A program made the position numbers and the translations under genes. Under the pieces are notes generated by a model. It was not told where the DNA came from, did not search any database, and was given only the letters and a program-made list of their open reading frames with translations. Below are positions 3 to 62,961 of a stretch of DNA of 64,000 bases, one piece after another; the first letter of the stretch is position 1; every line of letters begins with the position of its first letter. The stretch spans positions 448,001 to 512,000 of the forward strand of contig CBDUPA010000002.1 of assembly GCA_965368975.1 (NCBI GenBank). The letters are read 5' to 3'. This DNA is from an uncultured bacterium. GTDB lineage: Bacteria > Acidobacteriota > Thermoanaerobaculia > Multivoradales > JAHZIX01.

Positions 3-995
3 ACCGAAGGTGCGATCAGCGCATCAATCACGCGACTCGATGCTGACACCCTGCATGGGAAGGTTCCGGTACCGGCTTCCCCGAGCAGCAGGACACCCGC
101 GACCCCGATCGGGCGTCCGACACTCGGCAAGCGTGTTTACGTCCTCGACGCCTGGCTGCGGACCGTGCCGCTCGGGGTACCTGGCGAGCTGTGCATCGGC
201 GGCCAGGTCGCGCGCGGCTACCTGGGTGACGCCGGCAAGACGGCCACAAGCTTCCTGCCCGATGCCTTCTCCACCCAGGCCGGCGGCCGGCTCTACAAGA
301 CCGGCGACCTCGTGCGCCATCTCGCCGACGGCCAGCTACAGTTCCTCGGCCGCGCCGACGACCAGGTCAAGCTGCGGGGCTTCCGCGTCGAGCTGGGCGA
401 GATCGAAGCCGCCCTGGTACGCCATCCGGCGGTCAGCGAAGCCGCGGCCCTGGTGCATGGCGAGGGCCCGCAGGCCCGCCTGGTCGCGGCCTATGTTGCG
501 GCAGAGGGCACGGCTCCAGAGGGCACGGCTCCAGAACCCGGCGAGTTGCGCGAGTTCCTCTCGCACCAGCTGCCGGCCGCGCTCGTGCCTGGCGGCTTCC
601 TGCAGGTCGATGCACTACCGCGGACCAGCGCCGGCAAGCTGGACCGGCGAGCGCTGGCCAAGGCTGCGGCGGAGAGTGCCGCGGAGCACGCGACCGCTCT
701 CGGCGCACGCATGCACGAGCCGCCCGAAGGTGAACTCGAAGCGATTCTGGCCGAATACTTCCAGGATCTGCTCGGCGTCGAACACGTCGGTCGTCACGAC
801 GACTTCTTCGACCTCGGTGGTCACTCGATGGTCGCCACCTGGCTGATCGGCCGCATCGTCGAAGAACTCAGCGTCGAGCTGCCGCTGCAAGCGCTGTTCG
901 AAGCCCCCACCATCGCCGGCCTCGCGCGACTGATCGCGCCACGGCTGCCAGAAGACACCGCCGTCGACCCCGCGGCGGAAGACCAGGGGCTATAA
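3..995 (+). CDS. NRPS, 3' end (C-terminal half of adenylation domain + PCP), 5'-truncated by window edge
   Basis: Frame open from position 3 (TEGAISAS...PIGRP), then [34 protein letters not shown] (A10 Lys) and PCP motif FFDLGGHS. No TE. Confidence 0.93.
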
Positions 996-1005
996 TCCGT
1001 CGCGC

Positions 1006-1620
1006 ATGGACAAACACGACACCACACCTTCCTCGCTGCAACGCCTCGACCAGCAGATCCGCTTTACCCTCGAAATCGACAACCTGAAGCACGTCATCCG
1101 ACGCTGCTACCTGGTCAACGGTGAGCGGCGCGAGAACACCGCCGAGCACAGCTGGCACCTGGCGGTGGGCGCCGTGGTGCTGGCCGAGCACGTCGACGAA
1201 GAGGTCGACCTGCTGCGGGTGCTCAAGATGGCGCTGATCCACGACATCGTCGAGATCGACGCTGGGGACACCTTCGCCTACGATGCGAAAGGCTACGAGG
1301 ACAAGGCCGAGCGCGAACAACTTGCGGCCGAGCGGCTGTTCGGCCTGCTGCCCGAGAATCAGGCCAGCGAGTTCCGCCAGCTGTGGCACGAGTTCGAGGC
1401 CATCGAGACGCCGGAGGCCCGCTTCGCCACCGCCCTCGACCGCCTGATGCCGATGCTGCACAACTACCACACCGAAGGCCGCGCCTGGCGCGAACACGGC
1501 GTCACCAGCGAGCAAGTCCTGGGACGCATGAAAGACATCCGGCCCGCGTCGGAAAGCTTGTGGCAATTCGTCCAGGCGCTGGTACAGGACGCGGTCGACA
1601 AGGGCTTCCTGGCGGCCTGA
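1006..1620 (+). CDS. HD-domain phosphohydrolase (HD_3/HDDC2-like family)
   Basis: RRENTAEHSW, LIHDIVEIDAGD and ALDRLMP motifs. Confidence 0.88.
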   Translation: MDKHDTTPSSLQRLDQQIRFTLEIDNLKHVIRRCYLVNGERRENTAEHSWHLAVGAVVLAEHVDEEVDLLRVLKMALIHDIVEIDAGDTFAYDAKGYEDKAEREQLAAERLFGLLPENQASEFRQLWHEFEAIETPEARFATALDRLMPMLHNYHTEGRAWREHGVTSEQVLGRMKDIRPASESLWQFVQALVQDAVDKGFLAA

Positions 1621-1642
1621 TCCGCCGGACGAAAGGAACGAT

Positions 1643-2563
1643 GTGCCCAACGATTCAGACACCCAGAGCGGCTTCGACATTCAAAGTGTAGAGATCGGCG
1701 GACGCCCCGTCGGCCCCGGACACCCGACCTACATCATCGGTGAGATCGGCATCAACCACAACGGCGATCTCGACGTCGCCCGCAAGTTGATCGACGCCGC
1801 CGCACTGGCCGGCTGCGACGCGGTGAAGTTCCAGAAGCGCACACCAGAGGTCTGCGTGCCACCCGAGCAGCAAAGTGTGATGCGTGAGACACCGTGGGGG
1901 CTGATCAGCTACCTCGACTACCGCTACAAGGTCGAGTTCGGCGAAGACGAGTACCGGCAGATTGACGCCTACTGCAAGGACAAAGGCATCCATTGGTTCG
2001 CCTCACCCTGGGATGTCCCCTCTGTCGACTTCCTCGAAGCCTTCGACCCCGTCTGCTACAAAGTAGCTTCCGCCTGCCTCACCGACGCCGACCTGCTCAC
2101 ACGCCTGCACGCCACCGGCCGGCCGGTGATCCTGTCGACCGGCATGTCGACGCTGGACGAGATCCGCACGGCCGTCGCGCGCCTGGGCGAGGGGCAGGGC
2201 AAGGAACGCTTGTTGGTCGCCCACACCACCAGCACCTATCCCTGCCCGGCGGAAGAGCTGAATCTGCAGATGATCGACACCCTGGCCCAGGAGTTCGGCG
2301 TACCGATCGGCTACTCAGGGCACGAGGTCGGCCTGCAAACCACCTGCGCCGCGGTCGTCCTCGGCGCCTGCTTCGTCGAGCGTCACATCACCGTCGACCG
2401 CGCCATGTGGGGCAGCGACCAGGCCGCCTCGGTCGAGCCCTGGGGCCTGATGCGCCTGGTGCGCGACATCCGCGTGGTCGAAAAGGCCCTCGGCGACGGC
2501 GTCAAGCAGGTGTACGACAGCGAAAAGAAGGCCCGCGCCAAACTGCGTCGCGTGACGTCCTGA
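1643..2563 (+). CDS. neuB: N-acetylneuraminate/nonulosonate synthase family protein (short form, no C-terminal SAF/antifreeze-like domain)
   Basis: IIGEIGINHNG, DAVKFQ, ILSTGMS, GYSGHE, VERHIT, SDQAAS. GTG start with AAGGA RBS. Confidence 0.88.
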   Translation: MPNDSDTQSGFDIQSVEIGGRPVGPGHPTYIIGEIGINHNGDLDVARKLIDAAALAGCDAVKFQKRTPEVCVPPEQQSVMRETPWGLISYLDYRYKVEFGEDEYRQIDAYCKDKGIHWFASPWDVPSVDFLEAFDPVCYKVASACLTDADLLTRLHATGRPVILSTGMSTLDEIRTAVARLGEGQGKERLLVAHTTSTYPCPAEELNLQMIDTLAQEFGVPIGYSGHEVGLQTTCAAVVLGACFVERHITVDRAMWGSDQAASVEPWGLMRLVRDIRVVEKALGDGVKQVYDSEKKARAKLRRVTS

Positions 2564-2595
2564 CACTCTTCTTCTGAATCCCGTCCGGAGAACTG

Positions 2596-3306
2596 ATGCG
2601 TCATCTACTCTTGATCAGCACGTCCCGTACCCACGGCACCGGCTTCCTTGAACACTGCGCCAGAGACCTGCAAGAGCGCTTCCAGAGCGCCGCCGATGCC
2701 GCAAAGCCGGTGATTTTCGTCCCGTACGCCTTCAAGGACTACGACAGCTACATCGCCATCGCGCGTCCAGCGTTCGAGAGCATGGGTTTCACGTGCCGCG
2801 GCATCCACGAAGGCGATCCGCGCCAGAACCTGCAGGAGGCAGGGGCGGTGTTCATCGGTGGCGGCAACACGTTCCGTCTCCTCGACACCTTGTACCGCGA
2901 GCAGCTCGTCGAACCCCTGCGTGAACGGGTCGGGAACGGCATGCCCTACGCCGGTGCCAGTGCCGGCTCCAACGTCGCTACGCTCAACATCCGCACCACC
3001 AACGACATGCCGATCCTCCAGCCACCCACCTTCGACGCACTGGGCTTCATCCCGTTCAACCTCAACCCGCACTACCTGGACCCGGATCCGAACTCCAAGC
3101 ACATGGGCGAGACCCGCGAGACACGGATCAAGGAGTTTCACGAAGAGAACGAGCAGCCGGTGTTGGGACTGCGGGAAGGATCGATGCTGTGGGTGGACGA
3201 CGACACGGCGCAGATCCGTGGTGAAGTCGGGGCACGATTGTTCTTGCGCGGTGAAAAGGCGCGGGAGCTGGAGCCGGGTGCGGATGTGTCGTTCTTGCTA
3301 ACCTAG
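2596..3306 (+). CDS. pepE: Dipeptidase E (peptidase S51)
   Basis: IGGGNTFRLL, GASAGSN, TTNDMPI, NLNPHY, GETRETRI, GLREG. Confidence 0.93.
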   Translation: MRHLLLISTSRTHGTGFLEHCARDLQERFQSAADAAKPVIFVPYAFKDYDSYIAIARPAFESMGFTCRGIHEGDPRQNLQEAGAVFIGGGNTFRLLDTLYREQLVEPLRERVGNGMPYAGASAGSNVATLNIRTTNDMPILQPPTFDALGFIPFNLNPHYLDPDPNSKHMGETRETRIKEFHEENEQPVLGLREGSMLWVDDDTAQIRGEVGARLFLRGEKARELEPGADVSFLLT

Positions 3307-3447
3307 CCGCCAGATCTTGGCTTGCCCAGAGCGTTCCGGCACAGACTCCGGCGGTCTGGTATCGTCGCTCTTCCGCCCCGCGGACCACCGATTATCCTGC
3401 GGTATACTTCGCATTCACGCTCATTATCCTCAAAACAAGCTGAGATC

Positions 3448-4869
3448 ATGTTCGACGGACTCCAAGGCAAGCTCAACGACGTCTTCCGCAACCTGCGTGG
3501 CGAAGGACGCATCACTGAACAGACGCTGAACGCGGCGCTACGCCAGATCCGATTGGCGATGCTGGAGGCGGACGTGCACATCCGCGTGGTGCGGCCGTTC
3601 ATCGACCGTATTCGCGAGAAGTCGCTGGGGCAGGAAGTCCTGCAAAGCCTGTCAGCGCCGCAGCAGGTGATCAAGATCGTCCGCGACGAGTTGATCGGGC
3701 TGCTGGGGGAAGACGGCGCCGAGCTGCGGCTGGACAAGCGCCCTTCCGTCGTCCTGATGTGCGGCTTGCAGGGTTCGGGTAAGACGACGACTTCTGGCAA
3801 GCTGGCCAAGCGGCTCAAGAGCAAGGGCCGGCAACCTCTGCTGGTGGCCGGTGACTTGCAGCGCGCGGCGGCGGTGGAGCAGCTGGTCCAAGTGGGCAGT
3901 CAGGCCGGAACCCCGGTGGTGCAGCCCGAGGACGGAGAGGGCGTGCTGGCACTGGCCAAACGGGCCCTTCGGCATGCTCAGGATCACGGCAACGACACCC
4001 TGATCTTCGATACCGCCGGCCGTCTGCACGTCGACACCGAGTTGATGGACGAGCTGAAGGCACTGGCGAAGCAACTGGATCCGCAGGAGATCCTGTTCGT
4101 CGCCGACTCGATGACCGGTCAGGACGCGGTGCGCAGTGCCGAGCAGTTCGCCGAGGCGCTCGACCTCACTGGCGTGGTGTTGACCAAGATGGACGGCGAC
4201 ACGCGCGGTGGTGCGGCGCTGTCGATCCGCACCGTGGCACGGGTGCCGATCCGCTTCGTGGGTGTCGGCGAGAAGCTGGAGGAGATCGAACTCTTCCACC
4301 CGGAGCGCCTGGCCGGACGCATGATCGGCATGGGCGACGTGCTCAGCCTGATCGAGAAGGCCGAGCAGAACATCGACCAGGAAGAAGCCGAGCGCCTGGC
4401 CAAGCGGGCGATGAAGGCCCAGTTCACGCTCGAGGATCTGCGCGACCAGCTCAAGCAGCTGCGGCGCATGGGCCCGCTCAGTCAGATCCTGGGCATGCTA
4501 CCCAAGGCCGGTCCGCTCAAAGGTCTCGACGCCTCGCAGGTGGACGAGTCGCAGTTCAAGCGCATCGAAGCGTTGATCAACTCGATGACGGCGGAGGAAC
4601 GGCGACGCCCCGAGGTGTTCAATTCCAGCCGCAAGCGGCGCGTGGCGAAGGGCTCCGGCACGTCCGTCGCCGAGCTGAACCGGCTGCTCAAGCAGTACAA
4701 GACGATGCGCAAGATGCTCAAGGGCAAGCAAGGCAAGATGATGCGTAAGATGATGAGCGGCGGTATGGATATGGGCGGTGGCGGTGGTCTGGGCTTGGGC
4801 GGCGGAGGCGGCTTGGGCGGCGGAGGCGGCTTTGGGGGCGGAGGCGGCCTGGGCGGCGGGCGGTTCTAG
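3448..4869 (+). CDS. ffh: Signal recognition particle protein with Gly-rich C-terminal tail
   Basis: GLQGSGKTT, DTAGR, TKMDGD, M-domain RRVAKGSG. Start taken at the ATG at 3448 (MFDGLQ). Confidence 0.97.
   Translation: MFDGLQGKLNDVFRNLRGEGRITEQTLNAALRQIRLAMLEADVHIRVVRPFIDRIREKSLGQEVLQSLSAPQQVIKIVRDELIGLLGEDGAELRLDKRPSVVLMCGLQGSGKTTTSGKLAKRLKSKGRQPLLVAGDLQRAAAVEQLVQVGSQAGTPVVQPEDGEGVLALAKRALRHAQDHGNDTLIFDTAGRLHVDTELMDELKALAKQLDPQEILFVADSMTGQDAVRSAEQFAEALDLTGVVLTKMDGDTRGGAALSIRTVARVPIRFVGVGEKLEEIELFHPERLAGRMIGMGDVLSLIEKAEQNIDQEEAERLAKRAMKAQFTLEDLRDQLKQLRRMGPLSQILGMLPKAGPLKGLDASQVDESQFKRIEALINSMTAEERRRPEVFNSSRKRRVAKGSGTSVAELNRLLKQYKTMRKMLKGKQGKMMRKMMSGGMDMGGGGGLGLGGGGGLGGGGGFGGGGGLGGGRF
4774..4860 (+). 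repeat. Imperfect 18-bp tandem repeats encoding (GGGGG[LF])n in the Ffh tail
   Basis: ggcggcggaggcggcttg-like units read directly. Confidence 0.8.
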
Positions 4870-4885
4870 CACCCGGTAGGACGCC

Positions 4886-7800
4886 GTGGAGCAACAGAGC
4901 ACCGGCCTTGAGATCGCGGTCATCGGCTTGGCTGGACGCTTCCCTGGTGCCCCGGACATCGAGACCTTCTGGCGCAATCTCGACGCTGGCGTCGAGAGCA
5001 TTCGCTCCTTCAGCGACGAGGAACTGCTGGAGGCCGGTGTTGCGCTGGAGATACTGGCGGATCCGGCGTACGTCCGGGCGCGCGGCTATCTCGACGACAG
5101 CGAGCTGTTCGACGCGGAGCTGTTCGGCTTCAATGCACGCGAGGCGGAGATTCTCGATCCCCAGCAGCGCTTGTTCCTGGAAGTCGCTTGGAGCGCACTT
5201 GAGCACGCCGGCTACGGCCGCGGCGGCGAACGACCGTCAGTAGGCGTCTACGCTGGCGTCAGCCTCAACGGCTATTTCCTGAACAACCTGCAGACGCGCC
5301 CCGAGGTGCTGGCGGCGGTCGGTACGATGCAGGTCGGCACCGGAATCGACAAGGACTTCCTGGCGACGCGCGTTTCCTACAAGCTGGATCTGCAAGGTCC
5401 CAGCGTCAGCGTCCAGACCGCGTGCTCGACGTCGCTGGTGGCGGTGCACCTGGCGTGCCAGGCACTGCTCTGCGGTGAATGTGACATCGCCCTGGCAGGC
5501 GGTGCGTCGTTGGGTGTACCGCCGGTCTCCGGCTACCTGTACCAGGAAGGCGGCATCCTGTCTCCGGATGGGCATTGCCGCGCTTTCGACGCTGACGCCG
5601 CGGGCTGTCTGGCCGGGCACGGCGCCGGCGCGGTGGTGCTCAAGCGGCTCGACGACGCGCTGGCCGACCGCGACACGCTGTACGCGGTGATCAAGGGCTC
5701 GGCAATCAACAACGACGGGGCGCTGAAGGCTGGCTACACGGCACCGAGCGTCGACGGACAGGCTGCCGTGGTGCGGGCAGCACTGCGCGTGGCCGAGGTC
5801 GAGCCGTCGTCCATCGGCCTGATCGAAGCGCATGGCACGGGCACGCCGCTGGGAGATCCGATCGAGATCACCGCGCTGCGGCAGGCTTTTGAGATCGACG
5901 AGCAGGCGCTCGACCCCGGCAGCTGCGCGATCGGCTCGGTGAAGACGAACATCGGTCATCTCGATGCCGCTGCCGGCATCGCCGGCCTGATCAAGGCCGT
6001 GCAGGCGCTGCGCTACCGGCGACTGCCACCGAGCCTGCACTTCCGCACGCCCAATCCCCAGCTGCAACTCGATCGCTCGCCCTTCTTCGTGCCGGTCGAG
6101 AGTGCGGCTTGGGCGGCGGCAGACGGGGCTGGTTGGCCCCGGCGGGCGGGGGTGAGCTCCTTCGGCATCGGCGGGACCAACGCCCACGTGATCCTGGAGG
6201 AAGCGCCGTGCATCGATGCGGCGGACCGGCGCGAGACGGCTCGACCCTGGCAGCTGCTGTGTCTCAGCGGACAGCGTCAGGAGGCCATCGAGCAGCTGTG
6301 CCACGCACTGGCAGCACAGCTGAGCGAGACGGGGGACGTCCCTCTTGCAGACGTCGCCTACACTCTCCACCTCGGTCGGCGACCCTTGCGGCACCGCGCG
6401 GTTGTGGTAGCCCGAGACATCGCCGACGCGGCGCGAGTACTGGCTGGCGACATGCCCGAGCGCCTGCTGCACGGCACGGCCACCCAGGGCCGCACGCCCG
6501 TCGCGTTCTTGTTCTCTGGTCAGGGCACACAGTACCCCGGTATGGCGCGCGAGCTGTACGAGCGCGAGCCCGTGTTCCGGCGCCACCTGGACTACTGCCT
6601 GGAGTTGCTGCAACCCCACCTGGACACGGACCTGCGTCGTTGGTTGCTGCCGGTGGACAGTGAAGAGGGGCAGGCCGCGGAGGCGTTGCGGCGCACCGAG
6701 CTGACGCAGCCGGCACTGTTCGCCGTCGAGCATGCGCTGTACGAGCTGTGGCAGAGCTGGGGCGTCGAGCCGGACGCGCTGTTGGGGCACAGCATCGGCG
6801 AGTGGGTCGCCGCTTGCCGGGCCGGCGTGCTGACGCTCGAGGCGGCGCTCGAGGCCATCGCGCTGCGCGGACGCCTGGTGGCACAGTGTCCGCTGGGCGC
6901 CATGCTCAGCGTTCCCTTGTCGGAAGCGGAACTCGAGACCTGGCTGACAGGCCGGAACGTCGAGATCGCGGCGATCAACGCGCCACGGCTGTGCGCGGTG
7001 GCCGGGCCGCATGCCGACGTCGAAGCGCTGGAGGCTGAGCTGCGCGCCGACGGCGTCGAGGTTCGGCGGCTACACACCTCGCACGCGTTTCATACGCATG
7101 CCCTGCAGCCAGCGGCGACAGCCTTGCAGGAGCACCTGAGGCATGTCGAGTTGCGCGCGCCGCACTTGCCTTTTGTCTCCAATGTCACCGGAACCTGGAT
7201 CACCGAGAGCGAAGCCACCGACCCCGCCTACTGGGGTCACCAGCTTCTGCGGCCGGTGCGCTTCGCGGACGGCCTGGGGACGCTGCTCGGTTCTTCGCTC
7301 GGAGGCGGCCGGCGCTTGCTGCTGGAAGTCGGCCCTGGGCACACCTTGAGCCGGCTGGCTCGGTTGCATCCGAGCTTCGCCGAGGATCGAGGAGGTCCAC
7401 TTCCCGTGGTGGCATCTCTACCACCGGCACCGAGAGCCGGCATCGCCACCCAGAGCGCGAAGACGTCGACCGAAGATGCGCAAGCGTCGATGCTGACGGC
7501 CCTCGGCCGCCTGTGGCAGTGCGGCGTCCAGGTCGACTGGCAGCTTCTGTACGACGGCCAGGCGCGACGCCGGCGGCCGTTGCCGACGTATCCGTTCCAG
7601 CACCGTCGCTACTGGCTCGACGCCGCTCCTCGGCAGGAGGCCAGCGGCGCTAGCGCGACGAGCCGGCAGCCGCTACCGAGATGGTTCTGGCGACCGGTCT
7701 GGCAACAGGCTCCTCCGGCAACGGCCGCTGCACTCCCGGGCGACCGGCCACGACACCTAGTGCTCGCAGGCGAGCCGGGCAAGGCTCGTGACGAACTGGC

Positions 7801-10459
7801 CGGGGAGTTGGACAGCCAGGGCTGGGCGGTACGACCGGTGGCGTCGCCGGGCACACGGGAGACATGGCTGCACCTGCTGCGACAGCTGCGGGAAGCAGAA
7901 GCCTCACCCCGACGTATTGTGCATCTCGGTTCCTACGGCACGGCTTTCGATGGAACTGGGACCGAGGCGGTAAGCCGACCTGATTTTCACACCTCCTTCA
8001 CGCCTTTGCTGACGCTGGCACAAGCTCTGAGTGAGCTGGGTCCCAGCGCGGATTCCAATGCCAATGCAGCCAATGCGAACGGCAGCGAGGGCGGCATCGA
8101 CGTGCTGGCGGTGACGGTCGCGGCGTGGCCGGTCACCGGCGACGAGCACGCCCGAGCGGAAGAAGCGCTGACGTTGGGCCCGCTGCGAACGTTGCCGCAC
8201 GAAGTTCCTGGCATTCACTGCCGGGCAGTGGATATCGAGCAGACCTCGGCACGGCGGCTGGCTGCGGCGCTGTCGGAGTCGCTGGAGGTACAGCCACTGG
8301 AGGGAATGGATCTGCTGGCGCTACGGGGACGGCGTCGTTGGTGCTGGCACTGGGAGCCGGTTGAACTGCCCGGCTCGTCAGAGGCGCGCCAGCGAACTGA
8401 AGGCGTCTACCTGATCACCGGCGGTCTCGGGGGTCTGGGACGCGTGTTCGCTGAGCACCTCTTGACGCACGGCGCCACGGTGGTGACCATCGGTCGGTCC
8501 ACGGGGGCAGGGGAGGGGGTTGAGGCCTTGATCGCCGCCGGGGGCCCATGCTGGCTCCACCTGACCGCGGACGTCAGCGACGAGGACGCGATGCGGCAGG
8601 TCTTTGCCACTATCGGGGAGCGCTGGGGGCGGCTCGACGGCGTCATTCACGCTGCCGGGATTCCCGGTGAGGGTGCGTTGGCGCGTATCTCCGCTACGGA
8701 CGCTGAAGCCGTACTGGCACCCAAGGTCAGAGGCACGCGGGTATTGGATCGGCTGCTGCGCGAACCTGCCTCGAATGGTGAACCCTGGCTGCATCAGCTG
8801 GAATTCTTCCTGCTCTGCGGCTCACTGACCGGTCACCTCGGCGGTCCCGGTCAGGTCGCCTACACCGCCGCCAATCTCTTCCTGGACGCCTATGCACAGC
8901 GGACAGCGCTGGAACTGGAAGACCTGCCGTCTGCTCCGCATGTGATCGCGGTGGACTGGGACGCCTGGGCCGAAGTGGGCATGGCGGCCGCGGCCGTGCG
9001 AGGAGTGGCCTCGCCGCGCGAGCGCTCTGGCGACGAGAAGGACAGCCAGCGAATCGACGCTCATCCTCTGCTCCAGCAGCGGCGGATCGAGGGCGAGACG
9101 GTGGTCTTCACCAGCCGCCTGCACGCGAGCGATACCTGGGTACTGGCGGATCACCGAACGGGCGGCCGGTCGGTGCTTCCGGGTACTGGCTATGTCGAGC
9201 TGCTGCGCACCGCGCTGCTGCTGCACGGAGATGAGGCTAGCGTCGAGGTCGGAGCTGAAGGAGGCGTCGAGATCTCACAGCTGATCTTGCTGCTGCCCAT
9301 GGCTTTTGACGATGCGGCGCGTGAGGTGCGGGTTCGCCTGCGACCGGAAGCTGGTGACGGGTTCAGCGCGGAGGTGGCCAGTCGAGGGACCAGTCGAAGT
9401 GACACGGACAAGAGCTGGTTGCTGCACGCGCAAGCTCGGGTCACCGCAGGCGCCGGCGCCGGGAGCACTACCAAAGCCGAAGATCTGGACAGCTTTCCGT
9501 CGCGGGTCACCGATGAGGACGAGGCGGGAGACAACCCGCTGTTCGACTTCGGCCCCCGCTGGCGCTGCATCCGGCAAGCTCGCACGACCCTCGAAGAGGC
9601 AGAGCATGCCCGCCTGCGACTGCCGGCGGAGTTCACGGCGGATCTGCAGGACTTCCCCCTGCACCCCGCCCTGCTCGACGCCGCGGTCGCGGCCCGGCCA
9701 CCGAGCGAAGCGCTGGAAGAGGCCGCGTACCTGCCCTTTGCCTACGATCGAGTACATATCCACCGTCCTCTGACGGCCGAGATTCTCAGCCGCATCACTC
9801 GGCACTCGACGAATCCTCCCAACTCTGCCAAGTTCGACGTGGTGGTCTTCGATACCGACGGTCGAGTGCTGGTGGAGATCGAAGGCTACACCTTGCGCCG
9901 GCTGAGTGCTGAGCAGCTCGCCGTACCGACCACGCAGCCGGCCGAGGAAGCACCGCTGGCACAGGCCATTCGCAATGCCGAGGGAATCGAAGTGCTCGAG
10001 CGGATCCTGGCGGACCAGCTACCGCAACGAGGCCTGGCGCAGGTGGCCGTCTCGACGGTTGATTTCGCAGCGCGGCTCGCACGGCTCGGCGAGACCCGCG
10101 CGCAGGTCGAGGGAGACGGCACCACCGCGAGCCACGCCAGACCCAACCTCTCGACGACCTACGTGGCGCCGAGTTCGGAGTTCGAGCGACACGTCGCCGA
10201 GGTGTGGAGGGAGTTGCTCGGCGTCGAGGAGCTCGGAGTTCACGACGACTTCTTCGAACTGGGTGGCCATTCGATCTTGGCAACGCAGAGCGCGGCCCGG
10301 TTGCGGGAGAAGCTCGGCACGGACATGCCCTTGGACGAGTTCTTCGAAGCCAACACCATCGCGCAGCTGGCGCAGCGTCTACTCGACTTTGAAGCCGAGA
10401 CAGCGGCGGAGGGCGCCGGCGCGAGATCTTTGGGCGACATCGAAGAAGGCTCCCTGTGA
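4886..10459 (+). CDS. Type I PKS module: KS-AT(malonyl)-KR with inserted DH-ACP
   Basis: KS VQTACSTS/HGTGT/KTNIGH; AT GHSIG and HAFH; KR ITGGLGGLG...YTAAN; DH LADHRTGGRSVLP and HPALLD; ACP GGHS. Confidence 0.95.
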   Translation: MEQQSTGLEIAVIGLAGRFPGAPDIETFWRNLDAGVESIRSFSDEELLEAGVALEILADPAYVRARGYLDDSELFDAELFGFNAREAEILDPQQRLFLEVAWSALEHAGYGRGGERPSVGVYAGVSLNGYFLNNLQTRPEVLAAVGTMQVGTGIDKDFLATRVSYKLDLQGPSVSVQTACSTSLVAVHLACQALLCGECDIALAGGASLGVPPVSGYLYQEGGILSPDGHCRAFDADAAGCLAGHGAGAVVLKRLDDALADRDTLYAVIKGSAINNDGALKAGYTAPSVDGQAAVVRAALRVAEVEPSSIGLIEAHGTGTPLGDPIEITALRQAFEIDEQALDPGSCAIGSVKTNIGHLDAAAGIAGLIKAVQALRYRRLPPSLHFRTPNPQLQLDRSPFFVPVESAAWAAADGAGWPRRAGVSSFGIGGTNAHVILEEAPCIDAADRRETARPWQLLCLSGQRQEAIEQLCHALAAQLSETGDVPLADVAYTLHLGRRPLRHRAVVVARDIADAARVLAGDMPERLLHGTATQGRTPVAFLFSGQGTQYPGMARELYEREPVFRRHLDYCLELLQPHLDTDLRRWLLPVDSEEGQAAEALRRTELTQPALFAVEHALYELWQSWGVEPDALLGHSIGEWVAACRAGVLTLEAALEAIALRGRLVAQCPLGAMLSVPLSEAELETWLTGRNVEIAAINAPRLCAVAGPHADVEALEAELRADGVEVRRLHTSHAFHTHALQPAATALQEHLRHVELRAPHLPFVSNVTGTWITESEATDPAYWGHQLLRPVRFADGLGTLLGSSLGGGRRLLLEVGPGHTLSRLARLHPSFAEDRGGPLPVVASLPPAPRAGIATQSAKTSTEDAQASMLTALGRLWQCGVQVDWQLLYDGQARRRRPLPTYPFQHRRYWLDAAPRQEASGASATSRQPLPRWFWRPVWQQAPPATAAALPGDRPRHLVLAGEPGKARDELAGELDSQGWAVRPVASPGTRETWLHLLRQLREAEASPRRIVHLGSYGTAFDGTGTEAVSRPDFHTSFTPLLTLAQALSELGPSADSNANAANANGSEGGIDVLAVTVAAWPVTGDEHARAEEALTLGPLRTLPHEVPGIHCRAVDIEQTSARRLAAALSESLEVQPLEGMDLLALRGRRRWCWHWEPVELPGSSEARQRTEGVYLITGGLGGLGRVFAEHLLTHGATVVTIGRSTGAGEGVEALIAAGGPCWLHLTADVSDEDAMRQVFATIGERWGRLDGVIHAAGIPGEGALARISATDAEAVLAPKVRGTRVLDRLLREPASNGEPWLHQLEFFLLCGSLTGHLGGPGQVAYTAANLFLDAYAQRTALELEDLPSAPHVIAVDWDAWAEVGMAAAAVRGVASPRERSGDEKDSQRIDAHPLLQQRRIEGETVVFTSRLHASDTWVLADHRTGGRSVLPGTGYVELLRTALLLHGDEASVEVGAEGGVEISQLILLLPMAFDDAAREVRVRLRPEAGDGFSAEVASRGTSRSDTDKSWLLHAQARVTAGAGAGSTTKAEDLDSFPSRVTDEDEAGDNPLFDFGPRWRCIRQARTTLEEAEHARLRLPAEFTADLQDFPLHPALLDAAVAARPPSEALEEAAYLPFAYDRVHIHRPLTAEILSRITRHSTNPPNSAKFDVVVFDTDGRVLVEIEGYTLRRLSAEQLAVPTTQPAEEAPLAQAIRNAEGIEVLERILADQLPQRGLAQVAVSTVDFAARLARLGETRAQVEGDGTTASHARPNLSTTYVAPSSEFERHVAEVWRELLGVEELGVHDDFFELGGHSILATQSAARLREKLGTDMPLDEFFEANTIAQLAQRLLDFEAETAAEGAGARSLGDIEEGSL

Positions 10460-13400
10460 ACCGAGCTATCGAAACACTGTGGCTGGCCCTGGACAGCGGC
10501 TTGCAGCTCTGGGTCGACGGCGATCAACTGCGCTTTCGAAGCGCCACGGGAGCTTTGACGGACGAGCTGAAGGCACGGCTCAAAGCGCACAAGACGGAAC
10601 TGCTCGACCTGATCGGTCCGGGACGCAAGCTGTGCCTGCCGGCGTTGGCCCAGCAGAGACTGTGGTTCTTGCAGCAACTCGACCCGCACAGCCCGGCGTA
10701 CAACCTGCCGGCCGTGTCGCGACTGCAGGGGCAGCTGGATGCCCATGCCTTGGCGCGGGCGCTGGCGCGCATCGTCGAGCGTCACGAGAGCTTGCGGACC
10801 GTGTTCGTGCTGCTCGACGGCCGGGTCGCCCAGTCCGTGGTGACGGCGCGGACATCGGTGCCCGTAGTGGACCTGAGCCGCTTGCCACCGGCCTTGGTGG
10901 AGCGCCTGGCGCAAGAGCTGGCGTCGCGGGAAGTGCAGAGCGCCTTCGACCTGGCTAGCGGACCGCTGGTGCACTTCCGACTGTTTCGACTGGGTCCAGA
11001 GGATCACGCGCTGGTGATCAACATCCACCACAGCGTCTATGACGGCTGGTCGGTGGGCTTGTTGTTCGGTGAGCTGGTGGCCTTGTACAACTTCGAGGTC
11101 GATGGGCGCGGCGAGCCGGCAGTGCCACCTGGAGTCCCACCCGTTCCGGACCTACCGCTGCAGTATGCGGACTACGCTCTGTGGCAACGCGAGCAGCTGC
11201 AAGGCGCGCTTCTGGAGCGCCTGCTCGACTACTGGCGCGAACGGCTACCACGCGTGCCGTCGGCCCTCGACCTACCGGGTCAACTCACACTGCGGCGCAA
11301 CCCTGTTGCCCGAAACGACGACGGGTCCCCGAGGGATGCCGGCTTCCTGGGCGACGAGGTGCTCTTCAGCTTCCCGGGCGACGTGCGCGATCGGCTCGAA
11401 ACACTGGCTCGGCAGCGTGGCACCAGCCTGCCAGTGGTGCTGCTCGCCGGCTTCCAGACGCTGCTCCACGCCTACACCGGCGCACCGGCGGTGACGCTGG
11501 GTCAACCAACAGCGAACCGGACTCGGCGCGAGGTGGAAGCCCTGATCGGCTTCTTCGCCAACATCGTGGTCTTGCACACCGATCTGCGGGGTGATCCGAG
11601 CTTCGACGAGCTTCTGACGCGCGCGCAGATAACGGCGCGCGGCGCCGGAGCGCACCAGGAGTTACCCTTCGACCGCTTGGTGGAGGAGCTGGCACCCGAA
11701 CGGGACCCGGCACGAAGGAATCCGCTGTTCCAGATCTTCTTCGCGGTGCAGAACGCGCCGCGCGGCGAGGCGCGGCTACGGGGCCTGACACTGCAACCCC
11801 TGCCCTTCGCGGCACGGGTGACGCGCTTCGACCTGGAAGTCCACCTGACACCGGCACCAGACAGTGCCAGTGGCGGCAGTGGCAGTCGCAGTAGCAGCGG
11901 CATCCTGTGCCACGTGATCTACAGCACAGCCCTGCTGGAGCGCACCGCCGTGGAGCGGCTGCCACGGCATCTGCTGCGCATTCTGGAGCAGGCGGTAGAG
12001 CGGCCGGCGCGGCACCTTGGCGGGTTCCAGCTGCTGACTCGGGCCGAGACTCGGCAGCTGCTCGACTGGACGACAACTGGGGCGCACGGACCGGCAACCG
12101 AGCAGGCACTCTTGGGCGCCTTCAACGCCCACGTCGCCGCCGGGCCAGAGGCAGCCGCACTGGTCGGCGACCACGGATCCATCCTGGCAACGCGACGCGA
12201 AGTGCAGGACGCGGCGACTCGCGAGGCTCAGGAGCAGGGCAACAATCCGCTCCAGGCACTACTCGATGTCGGTGGCCTGCCGGCGTTACTGGAGGCAGCA
12301 AACCCGCACCTGCGCCTGCTCGGACCGACCGGACAACCGGCACCGATCGGCGTCTGGGCTTCCATCGACGTCTGTCTGCCGCGGGCCGGCGAGATGACTC
12401 CCGTGCCCAGCCGAGCCTTCCAGGGACGTTGGCGCTCCAACGGCGGCATCGAGCTGCGCCCGGCTGGAAGCCCGGTTGGCAGCAGGCCCGCCGGAACCGT
12501 GGATGCACACCGGCTGTGGCGGCAGGGTGCTCTTGTTGACACCCGGGTGATCGAACGTCGGCTGCTGGACTTGCGCTTTGGCGAGACTGGACTGAGCGGT
12601 GCGGCGGTGCGTGCACGGCGGGTGTTCAGCAACCCAGCGCGGGCGTGTGACCGCGGGGAGAATGATAGCGAACTCGTGGCGTGGGTGACGGCGAGCGTAT
12701 CGCTGGCACCGGAACGGCTGGACGCCGTAATGCGCGAGACCTTTTTGGCGAGGCAGGTAGACCCGCGTTGGATTCCACAGGCAATCGTCCAGGTGTCCTT
12801 GTTGCCCCTGACCCAGGACGGCCAGCTCGACGAGCGCGCGCTGCAGCGGGTGGAAGTGCCGACACCGGACATCCTACAGCGCTGGCGAACCCGCTTGCGG
12901 GCACTGCCGGAAGTTCGTGACGTGGAGGTAGTGTCGATCCAAGTGCCGCGGACGCTGGACCGCTACCACCGGGACGACCTTGTGCCTCCCGGCGAAGGTG
13001 TCTCGCCAGCTGCCACGGACACCACAACGCGGACCGCTGCTCGCGAGGCGGCCGTTCTCGAGATTCCGCCGGCCGAGACGCCGCCTGCCGAGGCATCGTC
13101 GACCGTGGCGGATGGCGGTCCGCTGGAGCTGCCGGCCGAGGCGCCAAGAACGCTGGGAGAGGCTCTGCTGCGAACAGCGCGGGAGCATGCCGAGCACGGC
13201 ATTGCCTACATCGGCGCGGATGGTAGCGAGGACCGGCAAAGCTATCCGCAGCTGCTTGTCGAGGCGCAGGCGATCCTCGGCGGCCTGCGCCGGGACGGCC
13301 TCGTCGCGGGCGACTATGTGGTGCTGCAGTTCGAGGACATCCGCCTGCACCTGACGACTTTCTGGGCCTGCATCCTCGGTGGTCTCGTACCGGTGACCGT

Positions 13401-16400
13401 GGCGGTACCGCCGTCCTACGAGGTCGACGAAGCCGGCGAGTACAACGCCGTGGCGCTCAAGCTGCTCAACACTTGGCGCTTGCTCGGCCATGCCGCGGTG
13501 CTGACGCAGGTATCGCTCGCTGGCGCACTCGCAAGGTTGGGACTCGAGCCGCCGATCCATGCCATTGTGGTCGATCCCTTCCTCGAGCGGAAGCCGGCGA
13601 CACCGCGTACCGCCGACTCCCACGACGTGGCTTTCTTGCAGCTGACCTCCGGCAGCACGGGCATTCCGAAGTGTATCCAGGAGACCCACCACGGCATCGC
13701 CCACCACATCGAGGGCTCGCGCCTGGTCAACGGCAACAGCGCACGCGACATCACGCTGAACTGGCTACCACTGGACCACGTGGTGCCGATGCTCACCTAC
13801 CACATCAAGGACGTCTATCTGGGCTGCCGGCAAGTGCAGCTGGCAGGTGCCCGCGTGTTCGCGGATCCACTGTGCTGGCTGGATGCCCTGGAAAGGCACG
13901 GCGTCACCCACAGCTGGGCGCCCAACTTCGGCTTCAAGCTCGTTGCCGATGCCCTGGCGCAAGCATCGCCGTCGCGGTCCGCACAGGTCTGGGATCTCAG
14001 CCGCCTGCAGTTGCTGATGAATGCGGGCGAGCAAGTGACGCTGCCGGTGGTCGACGACTTTCTCCGGCGCACGGCACCCTTCGATGTGCGACCCGAAGTG
14101 ATGCAGCCGGCCTACGGCATGGCTGAGCTGTGTACCGCCATGACCTACGCCAACGGCTTCCGGCCGGAAACTGGCGCCTTTCGCTGCCGCAAGGCTGGCC
14201 TGGGCGAGGCTCTCGTGGCCGCCGACACTGGGGATCCTCTGGGTGTCGACTTCATCGACGTCGGCCCGCCGATTCCGGGGGTACGGCTGCGCGTGGTGAA
14301 TGCCGACAGCCGACCGTTACCGGAGGGAGTCGTGGGTCGGCTACAAGTCGCGGGCGCCATCGTCACTCCCGGCTACCTCAACAACGAGGCGGCCAACCGG
14401 GAGGCTTTCCCGCGAACCTACGAAGACGACGGCGTCTGGTTCCACACCGGCGATCTGGCCTTCCTGCGAGGTGGTCACCTCACGATCACGGGACGCGAGA
14501 AGGAAGTGATCATCGTCCGCGGGGCCAACTTCTACTGCTACGAGATCGAGGACATCGTTTCGAGCGTTGACGGCGTCGCGGCCACCTTCAGTGCCGCCTG
14601 CGCACTGGAAGACCCCGTGACCGGCACCGAAGGGCTGGCGATTTTCTTCGTCCCGGAGTCACCAGATCCTGAGGCGTCGCATTGCAGGTTGGACACGACT
14701 GTGTCTCGCCGCGTGGCCCGGCTGGCCGATGCAGTGCAGGCGGCAGTGACGGAGCGGTTGGGAATCAGTCCGTCCGTGGTCTTGCCGCTGGCGCCCGAGG
14801 ACTTCCCAAAGACGACGAGTGGCAAGATTCAGCGTACTCGGCTGAAGGAGGCGCTGGAGACCGGTGAGTTCGACGAGCTGCGGCGCCGACTCGACTTGCA
14901 GGTCGATGCGCTGGCTGGGCCGCTCGGTACAGAGAGAACGGTACCAGCCTGGTTTCACCAGCGCGTATGGCGGCGTTGCCCGCTATCAGCCAAGCCGCGC
15001 CGGAACCGCGAGATACGCGTTCGGATGCTCGTTCCAAGGGATGCGAGTGGGTCTGCGGAGAGCACGCGTCTAGCCGCAGTGGTGCGAGAACAGCTGCAGC
15101 AGCAAGAGGCTACCGTCGACGGGTACCAGCTGCCGGCCACCGCGGAGCTGGCGCAAGCGTTACAGCCAGGAGACACTCTGATCTACCTGGGAGCCTGGAA
15201 TGCTACTCCGCGCGTTGAGACAGCGGAAGATCTGACCAGGCTGCAGGAAGTTTGGGTTCGAGATGTGCTGGAGTTGGTGAGTTCGCTGCAGACCGTACCG
15301 CCGGAACGACGACGCGGGCTGCACCTCCTGGTTCCGACGGCAAGCTCGCACCATGTGGGACCCGCAACGGGCGACCCTTCGGTCGGCACGGCGTCCGATG
15401 AGGCAGAATCGGCCCGGGGGTCGCAAGCAAGGGAACCGCAAGGCCGCAATGGCTGGGTGTACGCTGGGGTCTCCTCGGTGTTCAAGACTTGGAGCCAGGA
15501 GCAGCCCTGGCTGCAGGCACGCCACCTGGACCTGCCTGCCACTGCTTCGCATCTCGAACTGGCGCGGCACCTGGTGGCCGAGGTCGCGGCGCAGCACGGA
15601 GCCGGAGCGGTGAGCGCGGCAACCCTGGAGGACGTCGCCTGGCGGGATGGGACACGCTATGTGACTCGCTTGCGCCCCCTGAGGATGAAACCACCGGCGG
15701 CGGAGTCCTCAGCGGTCGAGATCTTCTCACGCCGTAGCCGCTGGTTGTTGACCGGCGGGTTGGGAGGGATTGGCCGACGGCTGGCAGCGTGGCTCCTACG
15801 GGAGCGTGGCGCCCGGCTCTTGCTGACCGGGCGACGGTCGGCCCAGGATTCCGACATCGTGCGCGAACTCCAGGCGCTCGCGACACTCGGCGACGTCACC
15901 TACGTGTCCTGCGACGTGACCGACGGTGCCGCATTGGAAACGGCCGTTGCGAGGGCCGAGAAGGCTTGGGGCGCGACGCTCTCGGGAGCCGTGCATCTGG
16001 CTGGCAGCTACCACGAAGCGCTGCTGTCGGATGAGAGCGTCGAGGGCTTCCTGCGCCCGTGGCGGTCGAAGGTGCTGGGCGGATGGCAATTACGCCAGCT
16101 TCTCGCGGCGCGGCCAGAAAGCCAGCTCATCGCCTTCTCCTCGGTCAACGGATCTCTTGGCGGCCGCGGTGTCGCAGCCTACGGGGCGGCGAATGCGGGG
16201 CTCGAAGGACTGTGCGCGATGCCTTGCCGTGACGGACCACGAGTTCACACGCTGGCCTGGAGCCTCTGGCAGGACGTCGGCATGAGCCAGGGTTTCGCCG
16301 CTGGCGAGGCTGCGCGGGCGCGCGGCTTCCTGCCGGTCTCGGCACCGGCGGGGTTGCTCTCTCTACAAGCCGTGCTTGGCCGGATGGGTCCTCAGGACGC

Positions 16401-17811
16401 TTCGCGGCAAGAAGCCTCGGCGCTTCTCGTGGGACTCGACGACCGGCAGCCACACGTGCGGCAGATCCTCGAGCTGCCGGGCAGCGAGCCCAAGGACCTG
16501 CGTGCTTGGCAGCTCGCGGCTGCCATGGTGATCGAGGGCGGGGTGCAGCCACGGCTGGATGACTTCGCTTTGCGGGACCGCTTCGGCACCCCGGCTCCGT
16601 GCAGCACCCACGAAGTCGACACCTTACCGCGCGGCACGGACGGTGGCGTCGACACGCCCACATTGCGCAGGCGGCTTCAGCAGCTGGTCACGGGTCGGAC
16701 GACAGTAGACCGGCACGTGGCACCGCGCAGCGACCTGGAAGCCCGACTGGCTGAGCTGTGGCAAGAGCTCTTGGGTGGTGCTTCACCTAGCGTGCGAGAC
16801 AATTTCTTCCGTCTGGGCGGCCACTCCCTGTTGGCGTCGCGACTGGTTCTGGAGATCGAACGCCGTCTCGACACGCAGCTCCCCGTCTCGGCGCTGTTCC
16901 AGGCACCAACCATTGAACGCTTGGCGCGGATCATCGAGGCCCAGGAGCGGGGAGCCGGAGGCAGGGCCTGGTCGCCGCTTGTGCCGCTACAGCCGGAAGG
17001 CGATAGGACGCCCTTCTTTTGCGTTGCACCGATCATGGGCACGGTGTTTCCCTACTTCGAGCTGGCGCAGTTACTTGGGCCCGGTGCCTTGGACCGTCGG
17101 CGGCCGTTCGTCGGCGTCCAGCCGCTGGGCCTTGCTACTGGCCAGACGGCGCTCGCCACGATCGAGGAGATCACGGAATACTTCCTGACCGAGATCCGGG
17201 CACTGCAGCCGACGGGCCCGTACTTTCTGGGCGGCTGGTCCTTCGGTAGCTTTGTGGTCTACGAGCTGACGCGCCGGCTACGCCAGCAGGGAGAGGAGAT
17301 CGCCCTGGCCGCGCTCATCGATACGCCAGCACCGCTACCGTCGCAACGACCGTCCTTCCTGCACGGTCTGCGCTTCCTCTTCGCCACTTTGCTGCGAAAC
17401 TTTTGGCCGTGGGTCAAGGATTACTTCGCCCTGCAACGCACTGGCGATTTCGGAGACGAGAAAGACAGCCGCGGTCTGTGGCAACGCTTGTTGGAGCGAG
17501 CAACGCTGGCCGAGGTGATCCCAGAGGAGTCGCGAGAGGTGATGTCGCACCAGCCACAGATCCGTGCCATGTTGCGCGCCATGCGCGCCAACAGCGAGGC
17601 GATGGGACGCTACCAACCGCGAGCCGCAGACGTGCGCGTGCTGCTGCTGCGCACCGAGCACAGCTGGAGTCGCAGCGAGGACGAGACGCTCGGCTGGAGC
17701 GAACTGGCCCTGGGCGGCGTCGAGGTGGAGCGGCTGCCGGGCAATCACATGACGCTGCTGCGGAAGCCGCACGTGGAGACGGTAGCGCGAGTGCTCGCGC
17801 GGTACCTGTAG
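10456..17811 (+). CDS. Terminal NRPS (depsipeptide-type): docking domain-C-degenerate A-keto-acid A-KR-PCP-TE
   Basis: N-terminal LWVDGDQLRFR...LKAHKTELL; C HHSVYDG; A LTSGSTGIPK, LDHVVPM, PAYGMAE, FHTGD, SGKIQR; KR LTGGLGGIG...YGAAN; PCP GGHS; TE GWSFG and GNH. GTGA overlap with the PKS stop. Confidence 0.93.
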   Translation: MNRAIETLWLALDSGLQLWVDGDQLRFRSATGALTDELKARLKAHKTELLDLIGPGRKLCLPALAQQRLWFLQQLDPHSPAYNLPAVSRLQGQLDAHALARALARIVERHESLRTVFVLLDGRVAQSVVTARTSVPVVDLSRLPPALVERLAQELASREVQSAFDLASGPLVHFRLFRLGPEDHALVINIHHSVYDGWSVGLLFGELVALYNFEVDGRGEPAVPPGVPPVPDLPLQYADYALWQREQLQGALLERLLDYWRERLPRVPSALDLPGQLTLRRNPVARNDDGSPRDAGFLGDEVLFSFPGDVRDRLETLARQRGTSLPVVLLAGFQTLLHAYTGAPAVTLGQPTANRTRREVEALIGFFANIVVLHTDLRGDPSFDELLTRAQITARGAGAHQELPFDRLVEELAPERDPARRNPLFQIFFAVQNAPRGEARLRGLTLQPLPFAARVTRFDLEVHLTPAPDSASGGSGSRSSSGILCHVIYSTALLERTAVERLPRHLLRILEQAVERPARHLGGFQLLTRAETRQLLDWTTTGAHGPATEQALLGAFNAHVAAGPEAAALVGDHGSILATRREVQDAATREAQEQGNNPLQALLDVGGLPALLEAANPHLRLLGPTGQPAPIGVWASIDVCLPRAGEMTPVPSRAFQGRWRSNGGIELRPAGSPVGSRPAGTVDAHRLWRQGALVDTRVIERRLLDLRFGETGLSGAAVRARRVFSNPARACDRGENDSELVAWVTASVSLAPERLDAVMRETFLARQVDPRWIPQAIVQVSLLPLTQDGQLDERALQRVEVPTPDILQRWRTRLRALPEVRDVEVVSIQVPRTLDRYHRDDLVPPGEGVSPAATDTTTRTAAREAAVLEIPPAETPPAEASSTVADGGPLELPAEAPRTLGEALLRTAREHAEHGIAYIGADGSEDRQSYPQLLVEAQAILGGLRRDGLVAGDYVVLQFEDIRLHLTTFWACILGGLVPVTVAVPPSYEVDEAGEYNAVALKLLNTWRLLGHAAVLTQVSLAGALARLGLEPPIHAIVVDPFLERKPATPRTADSHDVAFLQLTSGSTGIPKCIQETHHGIAHHIEGSRLVNGNSARDITLNWLPLDHVVPMLTYHIKDVYLGCRQVQLAGARVFADPLCWLDALERHGVTHSWAPNFGFKLVADALAQASPSRSAQVWDLSRLQLLMNAGEQVTLPVVDDFLRRTAPFDVRPEVMQPAYGMAELCTAMTYANGFRPETGAFRCRKAGLGEALVAADTGDPLGVDFIDVGPPIPGVRLRVVNADSRPLPEGVVGRLQVAGAIVTPGYLNNEAANREAFPRTYEDDGVWFHTGDLAFLRGGHLTITGREKEVIIVRGANFYCYEIEDIVSSVDGVAATFSAACALEDPVTGTEGLAIFFVPESPDPEASHCRLDTTVSRRVARLADAVQAAVTERLGISPSVVLPLAPEDFPKTTSGKIQRTRLKEALETGEFDELRRRLDLQVDALAGPLGTERTVPAWFHQRVWRRCPLSAKPRRNREIRVRMLVPRDASGSAESTRLAAVVREQLQQQEATVDGYQLPATAELAQALQPGDTLIYLGAWNATPRVETAEDLTRLQEVWVRDVLELVSSLQTVPPERRRGLHLLVPTASSHHVGPATGDPSVGTASDEAESARGSQAREPQGRNGWVYAGVSSVFKTWSQEQPWLQARHLDLPATASHLELARHLVAEVAAQHGAGAVSAATLEDVAWRDGTRYVTRLRPLRMKPPAAESSAVEIFSRRSRWLLTGGLGGIGRRLAAWLLRERGARLLLTGRRSAQDSDIVRELQALATLGDVTYVSCDVTDGAALETAVARAEKAWGATLSGAVHLAGSYHEALLSDESVEGFLRPWRSKVLGGWQLRQLLAARPESQLIAFSSVNGSLGGRGVAAYGAANAGLEGLCAMPCRDGPRVHTLAWSLWQDVGMSQGFAAGEAARARGFLPVSAPAGLLSLQAVLGRMGPQDASRQEASALLVGLDDRQPHVRQILELPGSEPKDLRAWQLAAAMVIEGGVQPRLDDFALRDRFGTPAPCSTHEVDTLPRGTDGGVDTPTLRRRLQQLVTGRTTVDRHVAPRSDLEARLAELWQELLGGASPSVRDNFFRLGGHSLLASRLVLEIERRLDTQLPVSALFQAPTIERLARIIEAQERGAGGRAWSPLVPLQPEGDRTPFFCVAPIMGTVFPYFELAQLLGPGALDRRRPFVGVQPLGLATGQTALATIEEITEYFLTEIRALQPTGPYFLGGWSFGSFVVYELTRRLRQQGEEIALAALIDTPAPLPSQRPSFLHGLRFLFATLLRNFWPWVKDYFALQRTGDFGDEKDSRGLWQRLLERATLAEVIPEESREVMSHQPQIRAMLRAMRANSEAMGRYQPRAADVRVLLLRTEHSWSRSEDETLGWSELALGGVEVERLPGNHMTLLRKPHVETVARVLARYL

Positions 17812-18321: not shown

Positions 18322-20696
<2,375 letters not shown>

Positions 20697-62918: not shown

Positions 62919-62961
62919 CAAGACTCGCTGTGCTCGAAAGTCTCGGGCAGGCCTTAGAAAG

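Follow-up and report, generated by a model that had tools for sequence, protein, structure and literature searches.

Clusters for natural products that carry a relative of the ffh gene have a described precedent in goadsporin. The goadsporin cluster contains godI, an ffh-homologous self-resistance gene (PMC6027282), and goadsporin itself is described as acting on the signal recognition particle (SRP) (PMC6027282, PMC5303826). Target-directed genome mining with ARTS uses three criteria, localisation in a biosynthetic gene cluster (BGC), duplication and horizontal gene transfer (HGT); around 5% of core genes are reported to be flagged by any single criterion, and the use of several criteria together is advised (PMC5570205). 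Here we analyse an ffh gene located within a row of nonribosomal peptide synthetase (NRPS) and polyketide synthase (PKS) genes in an uncultured member of the Thermoanaerobaculia (Acidobacteriota). The stretch studied (the window) comprises 64,000 nt of contig CBDUPA010000002.1, which is C2 (588,756 bp) of a 7.1-Mb assembly in 59 contigs, denoted G000. An initial annotation of this DNA had rightly pointed to goadsporin and had proposed that the embedded ffh is a candidate self-resistance or target copy. The data presented below show that it is the sole, vertically inherited ffh of its genome. It is probably an ordinary housekeeping gene that was placed in the cluster by rearrangement, and not a dedicated resistance copy.

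A single, vertically inherited ffh

A search of G000 with its own Ffh sequence returned the gene itself and one other place, on contig C3, that is 33% identical. The C3 sequence is an FtsY-like open reading frame (ORF) that contains SRP54_N and SRP54 domains without SRP_SPB. The methionine-rich SRP_SPB domain (PF02978), which separates Ffh from FtsY, matches once in the genome, in ffh itself. The bacterial small SRP RNA (RF00169) also matches once, at C9:227154-227251 with a score of 70.6 bits. Ffh would mediate normal co-translational membrane targeting together with this one SRP RNA and the one FtsY-like receptor. In the order as a whole, Ffh was matched at E<=1e-60 in 40 of 41 genomes, G000 included, and the genome without a match is 79% complete. 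All of the matching genomes contain a single match save G016, in which there is a second, partial match at 48%.

The descent of the gene was examined in a maximum-likelihood tree of 30 Ffh sequences, with GTDB family labels as a proxy for the species tree. The 11 family labels need 10 changes on the tree, the minimum possible, while the mean for shuffled labels is 22.3. The G000 protein is located inside its own GTDB family with support of 99/97. Its end branch measures 0.26, against a median of 0.19, its path from the family node is the shortest and there is no long branch; neither phylogenetic incongruence nor acceleration of the G000 protein was found in the 30-sequence tree. The initial annotation had itself proposed that copy number and descent be used to judge its self-resistance hypothesis. 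The outcome is one ffh in a genome that is 99.32% complete, and an Ffh tree that follows the GTDB families.

Ffh comprises 473 residues, encoded from an ATG at window position 3448 to a TAG stop at 4867-4869. The gene had initially been extended to 4886, which is the first base of the GTG start codon of the adjacent PKS gene. As the Ffh proteins of all 29 relatives begin with MF(D/E)GLQ, the start of ffh is assigned to 3448 and not to an upstream TTG at 3322. The protein displays the complete Pfam architecture of Ffh, with SRP54_N (PF02881) at residues 5-82 (1.1e-20), the SRP54 GTPase domain (PF00448) at residues 99-293 (1.3e-69) and SRP_SPB, the M domain, at residues 325-424 (8.2e-35). The G1 (GLQGSGKTT), G3 (DTAGR) and G4 (TKMDG) motifs are intact, and the protein ends in a Gly-rich C-terminal tail; like tails are present in several relatives.

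At residues 136-142 (window 3853-3873) Ffh reads DLQRAAA, where the initial annotation had taken RPAA to be usual. This expectation is borne out by 160 public ffh loci from genome and metagenome contigs. Among the 131 with less than 60% Ffh identity, 129 display RPAA and two have RPGA, and other Acidobacteriota loci at 55-56% identity display RPAA; at 60% identity or above, RAAA is found in 29 of 29. RAAA, which we take to be the form of the motif seen in FtsY, is also invariant in the 29 relatives of the order, one of which reads DLRRAAA. Since the motif also occurs in genomes that yielded no counterpart of the NRPS-PKS cluster, RAAA is, on the sequences compared, a trait of the whole Thermoanaerobaculia order, and not a change tied to the cluster. 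At columns that are invariant in the other 29 sequences, G000 Ffh has a single private substitution, the conservative L38M, while the same count in the other proteins ranges from 0 to 8. Divergence at conserved positions, as in a resistance copy, was thus not seen, L38M alone distinguishing the protein from the 29 sequences.

The gene row and its context in relatives

The initial annotation had described a complete ffh embedded between biosynthetic genes, 16 bp ahead of a PKS gene, and both the Pfam domains and the sequence reading support this description. The gene row, as read from ORFs and Pfam matches, is entirely on the + strand and extends from C2:438790, where NRPS1 starts upstream of the window, to window position 17811. 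Its features within the window are:

3..995, + strand: 3′ end of NRPS1 (A-PCP), with Pfam matches to AMP-binding, AMP-binding_C and PP-binding
1006..1620, + strand: HD_3 / YfbR-like phosphohydrolase gene (PF13023, 1.7e-55), 11 bp past the NRPS1 stop
1643..2563, + strand: NeuB-family (nonulosonic-acid-synthase-like) gene (PF03102, 7.4e-80)
2596..3306, + strand: peptidase S51 (PepE-like) gene (PF03575, 2.9e-57)
3307..3447, + strand: S51-ffh spacer of ~141 bp, the only sizeable gap of the gene row
3448..4869, + strand: ffh, the sole SRP54/Ffh gene, with N, G and M domains and a Gly-rich C-terminal tail
4870..4885, + strand: ffh-PKS spacer of 16 bp, with AGGA 5 nt ahead of the GTG; too short for a terminator
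4886..10459, + strand: PKS module KS-AT-KR-DH-ACP (Pfam, translation)
10456..17811, + strand: NRPS2, with a TubC-type docking domain and C-A(KR)-PCP-TE, a terminal module (Pfam); overlaps the PKS gene by 4 bp

NRPS1 comprises ~3400 aa, and its upstream part contains matches to Condensation (five), AMP-binding and PP-binding. The PKS gene opens with the GTG at 4886; an in-frame stop at 4877-4879 excludes a start further upstream. The PKS protein (1857 aa) has a KS domain with the active-site Cys. As just 8 residues precede this domain, it is assigned as a KS for chain elongation that depends on a carrier further upstream. NRPS1, PKS and NRPS2 would constitute one assembly line, with the four small genes HD_3, NeuB, S51 and ffh inside it. 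Minus-strand genes flank the row on both sides, with the dcw cluster (mraW to ftsW) at its upstream end and the ATP synthase operon at its downstream end.

The placement of ffh in this row is derived. The ffh loci of 17 relatives, covering 6.8-19 kb each, were compared with the 14 other window proteins at E<=1e-10, and none of these proteins, which include HD_3, NeuB, S51, PKS, both NRPS pieces and the products of the atp genes, matched near ffh. These data show that the position of ffh in G000 is not the ancestral one. The gene is, as initially noted, away from rpsP-rimM-trmD, with rpsP of G000 on another contig at C11:228397. In the relatives G003 and G002, ffh is ~5 kb from genes that best match the rpsP-containing block of G000 C11.

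The other three embedded genes were compared, as the trio HD_3-NeuB-S51, across the five closest relatives. Each is single-copy in G000, although HD_3 also has a 31% paralogue. S51 was matched in all five relatives (54-62%), in a context common to four family members, and in G000 the genes corresponding to this context are distributed over C11, C31, C24 and C2:286-290 kb. In both G005 and G002 the NeuB orthologue (72-73%) is flanked by two genes of a polysaccharide cluster, a cytidylyltransferase-HAD gene on one side and a gene for a 471-aa protein on the other. These two flanking genes directly abut in G000 (C6:139326-142024), and the only NeuB of the genome is in the NRPS-PKS row; NeuB is thus a clean single-gene relocation. 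The C6 genes encode glycosyltransferases and a cytidylyltransferase-HAD fusion. As NeuB in the relatives is flanked by genes of this cluster, it is a sugar-pathway gene that belongs functionally with the CMP-sugar/glycosyltransferase pathway, and not with the assembly line. Orthologue-level matches to HD_3 in G005 (56%) and G017 (53%) are found in other contexts, in G005 behind a set of genes that corresponds to C8:37-49 kb. All four embedded genes therefore sit elsewhere in relatives, at four different loci. The neighbours of ffh, S51, NeuB and HD_3 in the relatives have their G000 counterparts scattered over many contigs, mostly one gene at a time, and in comparison with the family's other genera G000 keeps gene order mostly only within operons.

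Linkage of ffh to PKS genes in other genomes, a check put forward in the initial annotation, was found neither in the 17 relatives nor in 80 genome-contig loci. In the latter (1.30 Mb, mostly Clostridia, which serve as a wide negative control) no PKS, NRPS, HD_3, NeuB or S51 gene was detected near ffh. Another 80 ffh loci, from metagenome contigs, cover 0.69 Mb. The best Ffh identity among these searched contigs is 74%, indicating that none of them derives from the same genus. The KS-AT part of the PKS was also searched in 200 other genomes of the order, where the best match is 58-60%, and the A-KR-PCP part of NRPS2 reached 43% in the same genomes. Some PKS is present in 104 of the 201 genomes, G000 included. 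Judged from these comparisons, the NRPS-PKS cluster is lineage-specific, with no counterpart found in the order.

Several other features of the window are recorded here. An N-terminal extension of AtpD (704-aa ORF, 18322-20436, - strand) was considered and dropped, as the matches to family relatives begin only near residue 215 and the ORF probably reaches too far in the 5′ direction. A 292-aa ORF at 19818-20696 overlaps the ATP synthase beta ORF and fits the place of the gamma subunit. An 852-aa protein encoded at 60363-62921 (- strand) contains an Mrr-type nuclease domain, NB-ARC and many TPR repeats, an architecture like that of STAND-NTPase defence proteins; its gene adjoins an NRPS gene with the domain order LLM-C-A-PCP at 55511-60358.

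Origin of the arrangement

Contigs that are ~93% identical to the window and cover the stretch were found in public sludge and soil metagenome runs. In an unrelated run of a sludge metagenome, one contig of 4683 nt (X3 record 15) covers positions 798-4887 and 4896-5441, from the end of NRPS1 to the start of the PKS gene, and two other contigs (X1 record 6 and X2 record 11) also bridge ffh to PKS. As the ~93%-identical contig keeps the same order, the gene layout is real. The intergenic spacers of this relative differ by small indels. At the PKS start, 8 nt (window 4888-4895) are replaced by 47 nt, a net change of +39 that is a multiple of three; either the N-terminus of the PKS or the ffh-PKS spacer thus differs in the relative. 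Repeated NRPS/PKS domains can break or misjoin assemblies, and G000 is a 59-contig assembly. It is nevertheless extremely improbable that the contig of this metagenome-assembled genome misjoins a housekeeping region and megasynthase genes, since the junctions between 798 and 5441 are all spanned by independent contigs, in X3 by a single one, and the window is located mid-contig in C2.

Genome rearrangement most likely brought ffh into the cluster, a view that derives from gene order, which is heavily shuffled in comparison with the family's other genera, and from the megasynthase content of the genome. G000 contains 84 megasynthase (NRPS/PKS) ORFs in 45 loci, which span 893 kb or 12.5% of the genome; one such locus, on C19, extends over 128 kb. 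In the G000 lineage ffh would have come between NRPS1 and PKS-NRPS2 along with three unrelated single-copy cellular genes, HD_3, NeuB and S51. Ten other gaps between megasynthase ORFs were scanned and encode kinases, transketolase/DegT, radical-SAM/GT2, a MacB-type transporter, TauD and a symporter; regulators, tailoring enzymes and transporters are thus represented. One divergent gap, at C2:556356-563478 (L247), differs in that phosphofructokinase, AHSA1-like, AhpC/redoxin, VWA and glyoxalase proteins are encoded, another primary-metabolism patch in an NRPS/PKS locus.

As a by-product of its placement, ffh would keep its own upstream spacer, a probable promoter, and lack a terminator, so that transcripts begun at ffh or further upstream probably run into PKS and NRPS2. 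By eye, the S51-ffh spacer contains the -10-like sequences TATCGT and TATACT in G000, and boxes of the TAGCAT or TACCAT type are present in relatives; the spacer likely holds the gene's own putative promoter. Its predicted fold has an energy of -47.1 kcal/mol (z -2.34 against shuffles). A 12-bp inverted repeat (3313-3324 / 3436-3447) closes the whole spacer and ends just ahead of the ffh ATG; it could sequester the start region, or could be a scar of rearrangement. A scan for terminator-like sites returned three, no more than in shuffled sequence, with none between ffh and PKS and none on the + strand after ffh. A clear hairpin with a T-run is present behind ffh in at least one relative (L005). 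The 16-bp spacer and the lack of a terminator-like site after ffh suggest that ffh transcripts continue into PKS-NRPS2, and read-through is plausible from the sequence. A scan of the whole window against Rfam returned no family at the gathering score.

It was initially suggested that ffh protects the producer. According to this view the cluster product targets the SRP and ffh encodes an insensitive Ffh, either because the gene replaced the original or because the lineage is naturally insensitive. The location of ffh inside the assembly-line row, 16 bp from the PKS gene, the retention of this derived position in the ~93% relative and the precedent of godI in the goadsporin cluster (PMC6027282) would fit such a role. 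We nevertheless consider it very unlikely. There is no second ffh copy, the phylogeny is neither incongruent nor accelerated, the single private substitution is conservative, and RAAA extends across the order, including genomes in which this cluster was not found. In addition, the three co-embedded genes have no SRP link, NeuB being part of a sugar pathway encoded elsewhere, and chance adjacency is likely at this density of megasynthase genes. The resistance reading is therefore not supported for the G000 gene. An alternative is that the embedding was itself selected, an essential gene being kept in the cluster because it provides constitutive transcription of PKS-NRPS2, or because deletions spanning the cluster become lethal, either of which would stabilise a costly cluster. 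The tight co-directional packing with no terminator after ffh, the union in G000 of genes from four different loci in relatives, the conservation of their order across ~7% nucleotide divergence while the spacers change by indels, and the fact that the ffh gap is the sole one of 12 inter-synthetase gaps with a universal essential gene are consistent with this proposal. It is, however, unlikely, as the arrangement was seen in two related populations only, which may reflect one event inherited once, and as heavy shuffling and the large share of megasynthase DNA predict such cases without selection. Moreover, a literature search, worded on self-resistance only, brought up no known system of this type. 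A combined proposal, in which ffh and the three relocated cellular genes were captured in an NRPS-PKS operon and are held by selection, with ffh either a naturally insensitive SRP target or an anchor (through constitutive transcription and lethal deletions), appears distinctly unlikely.

The view that ffh is a housekeeping gene placed by rearrangement has to accommodate several observations that weigh against it. The initial annotation had looked to relatives for the same pepE-ffh context; this context is absent from their ffh loci, the placement being derived, and is found only in G000 and the ~93%-identical metagenome relative. The gene order is kept in this relative, which is ~7% diverged. 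The layout is nonetheless known from G000 and this one metagenome population only, no orthologue of the cluster having been found among 200 genomes of the order, and may trace back to a single inherited event. The four embedded genes are closely packed and co-directional with the synthetases, with spacers of 10, 22, 32, 141 and 16 bp; together with the conserved order, such packing would also fit a selected arrangement. G000 has 12 gaps of 400-8000 bp that separate megasynthase ORFs, and that of ffh alone holds a universally essential gene (10 of the 11 others were scanned). Among the 80 metagenome loci, two contigs whose Ffh is 70-72% identical contain, at a distance of 3-5 kb from ffh, a convergent NRPS-PKS gene that differs from those of the window. 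This gene, C-A-PCP-KS-AT-ACP-TE (L183:13848-18599 and L193:4564-11496), is located behind a DUF5916/CBM9 gene in an arrangement common to both contigs. As its KS-AT part is 51-53% identical to that of the window PKS, the cluster to which it belongs is not the same as that of the window. Within 900-5200 a scan for sigma-70 consensus promoters returned 0 sites, and both the ffh promoter and the co-transcription of ffh are predictions. Finally, judged by sequence alone, there is a small probability that ffh is a naturally insensitive single-copy target of the cluster product.

Implications and comparison with known systems

That four cellular genes are embedded in an assembly line, in an arrangement both derived and conserved, is a small curiosity. 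It also provides a caution for target-directed genome mining, as an essential gene within a cluster can resemble a resistance marker yet fail the tests of duplication, phylogeny and divergence. If the embedding of ffh were functional, the locus would exemplify the co-localisation of a target or essential gene without duplication, implying that co-localised targets need not be duplicated, and an uncultured Acidobacteriota lineage would be indicated as the source of a natural product directed at the SRP. G000 is of interest for natural-product mining in its own right, as approximately one-eighth of the genome consists of megasynthase genes.

The locus resembles that of GodI in the goadsporin cluster of Streptomyces sp. 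TP-A0584 in that an ffh-type gene is located inside a natural-product cluster. GodI is reportedly an extra ffh-like gene beside the housekeeping ffh of the goadsporin producer, whereas the G000 gene is the only copy. The goadsporin cluster specifies a ribosomally synthesised and post-translationally modified peptide (RiPP) in Actinobacteria, in contrast to the NRPS-PKS cluster of the Thermoanaerobaculia, and GodI is likened to the G000 gene by description only. Like the core genes that ARTS-type analyses flag through cluster proximity alone, G000 ffh satisfies localisation; it fails duplication and HGT, and thus agrees with one of three criteria. In comparison with bacterial Ffh such as that of Escherichia coli or Thermus aquaticus, the G000 protein differs in the order-wide RAAA in place of RPAA and in its Gly-rich tail, and its gene has no adjacent rpsP-rimM-trmD. 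It shares with these proteins full-length N, G and M domains, intact G1, G3 and G4 motifs, one SRP RNA, one FtsY-like partner and a single gene copy.

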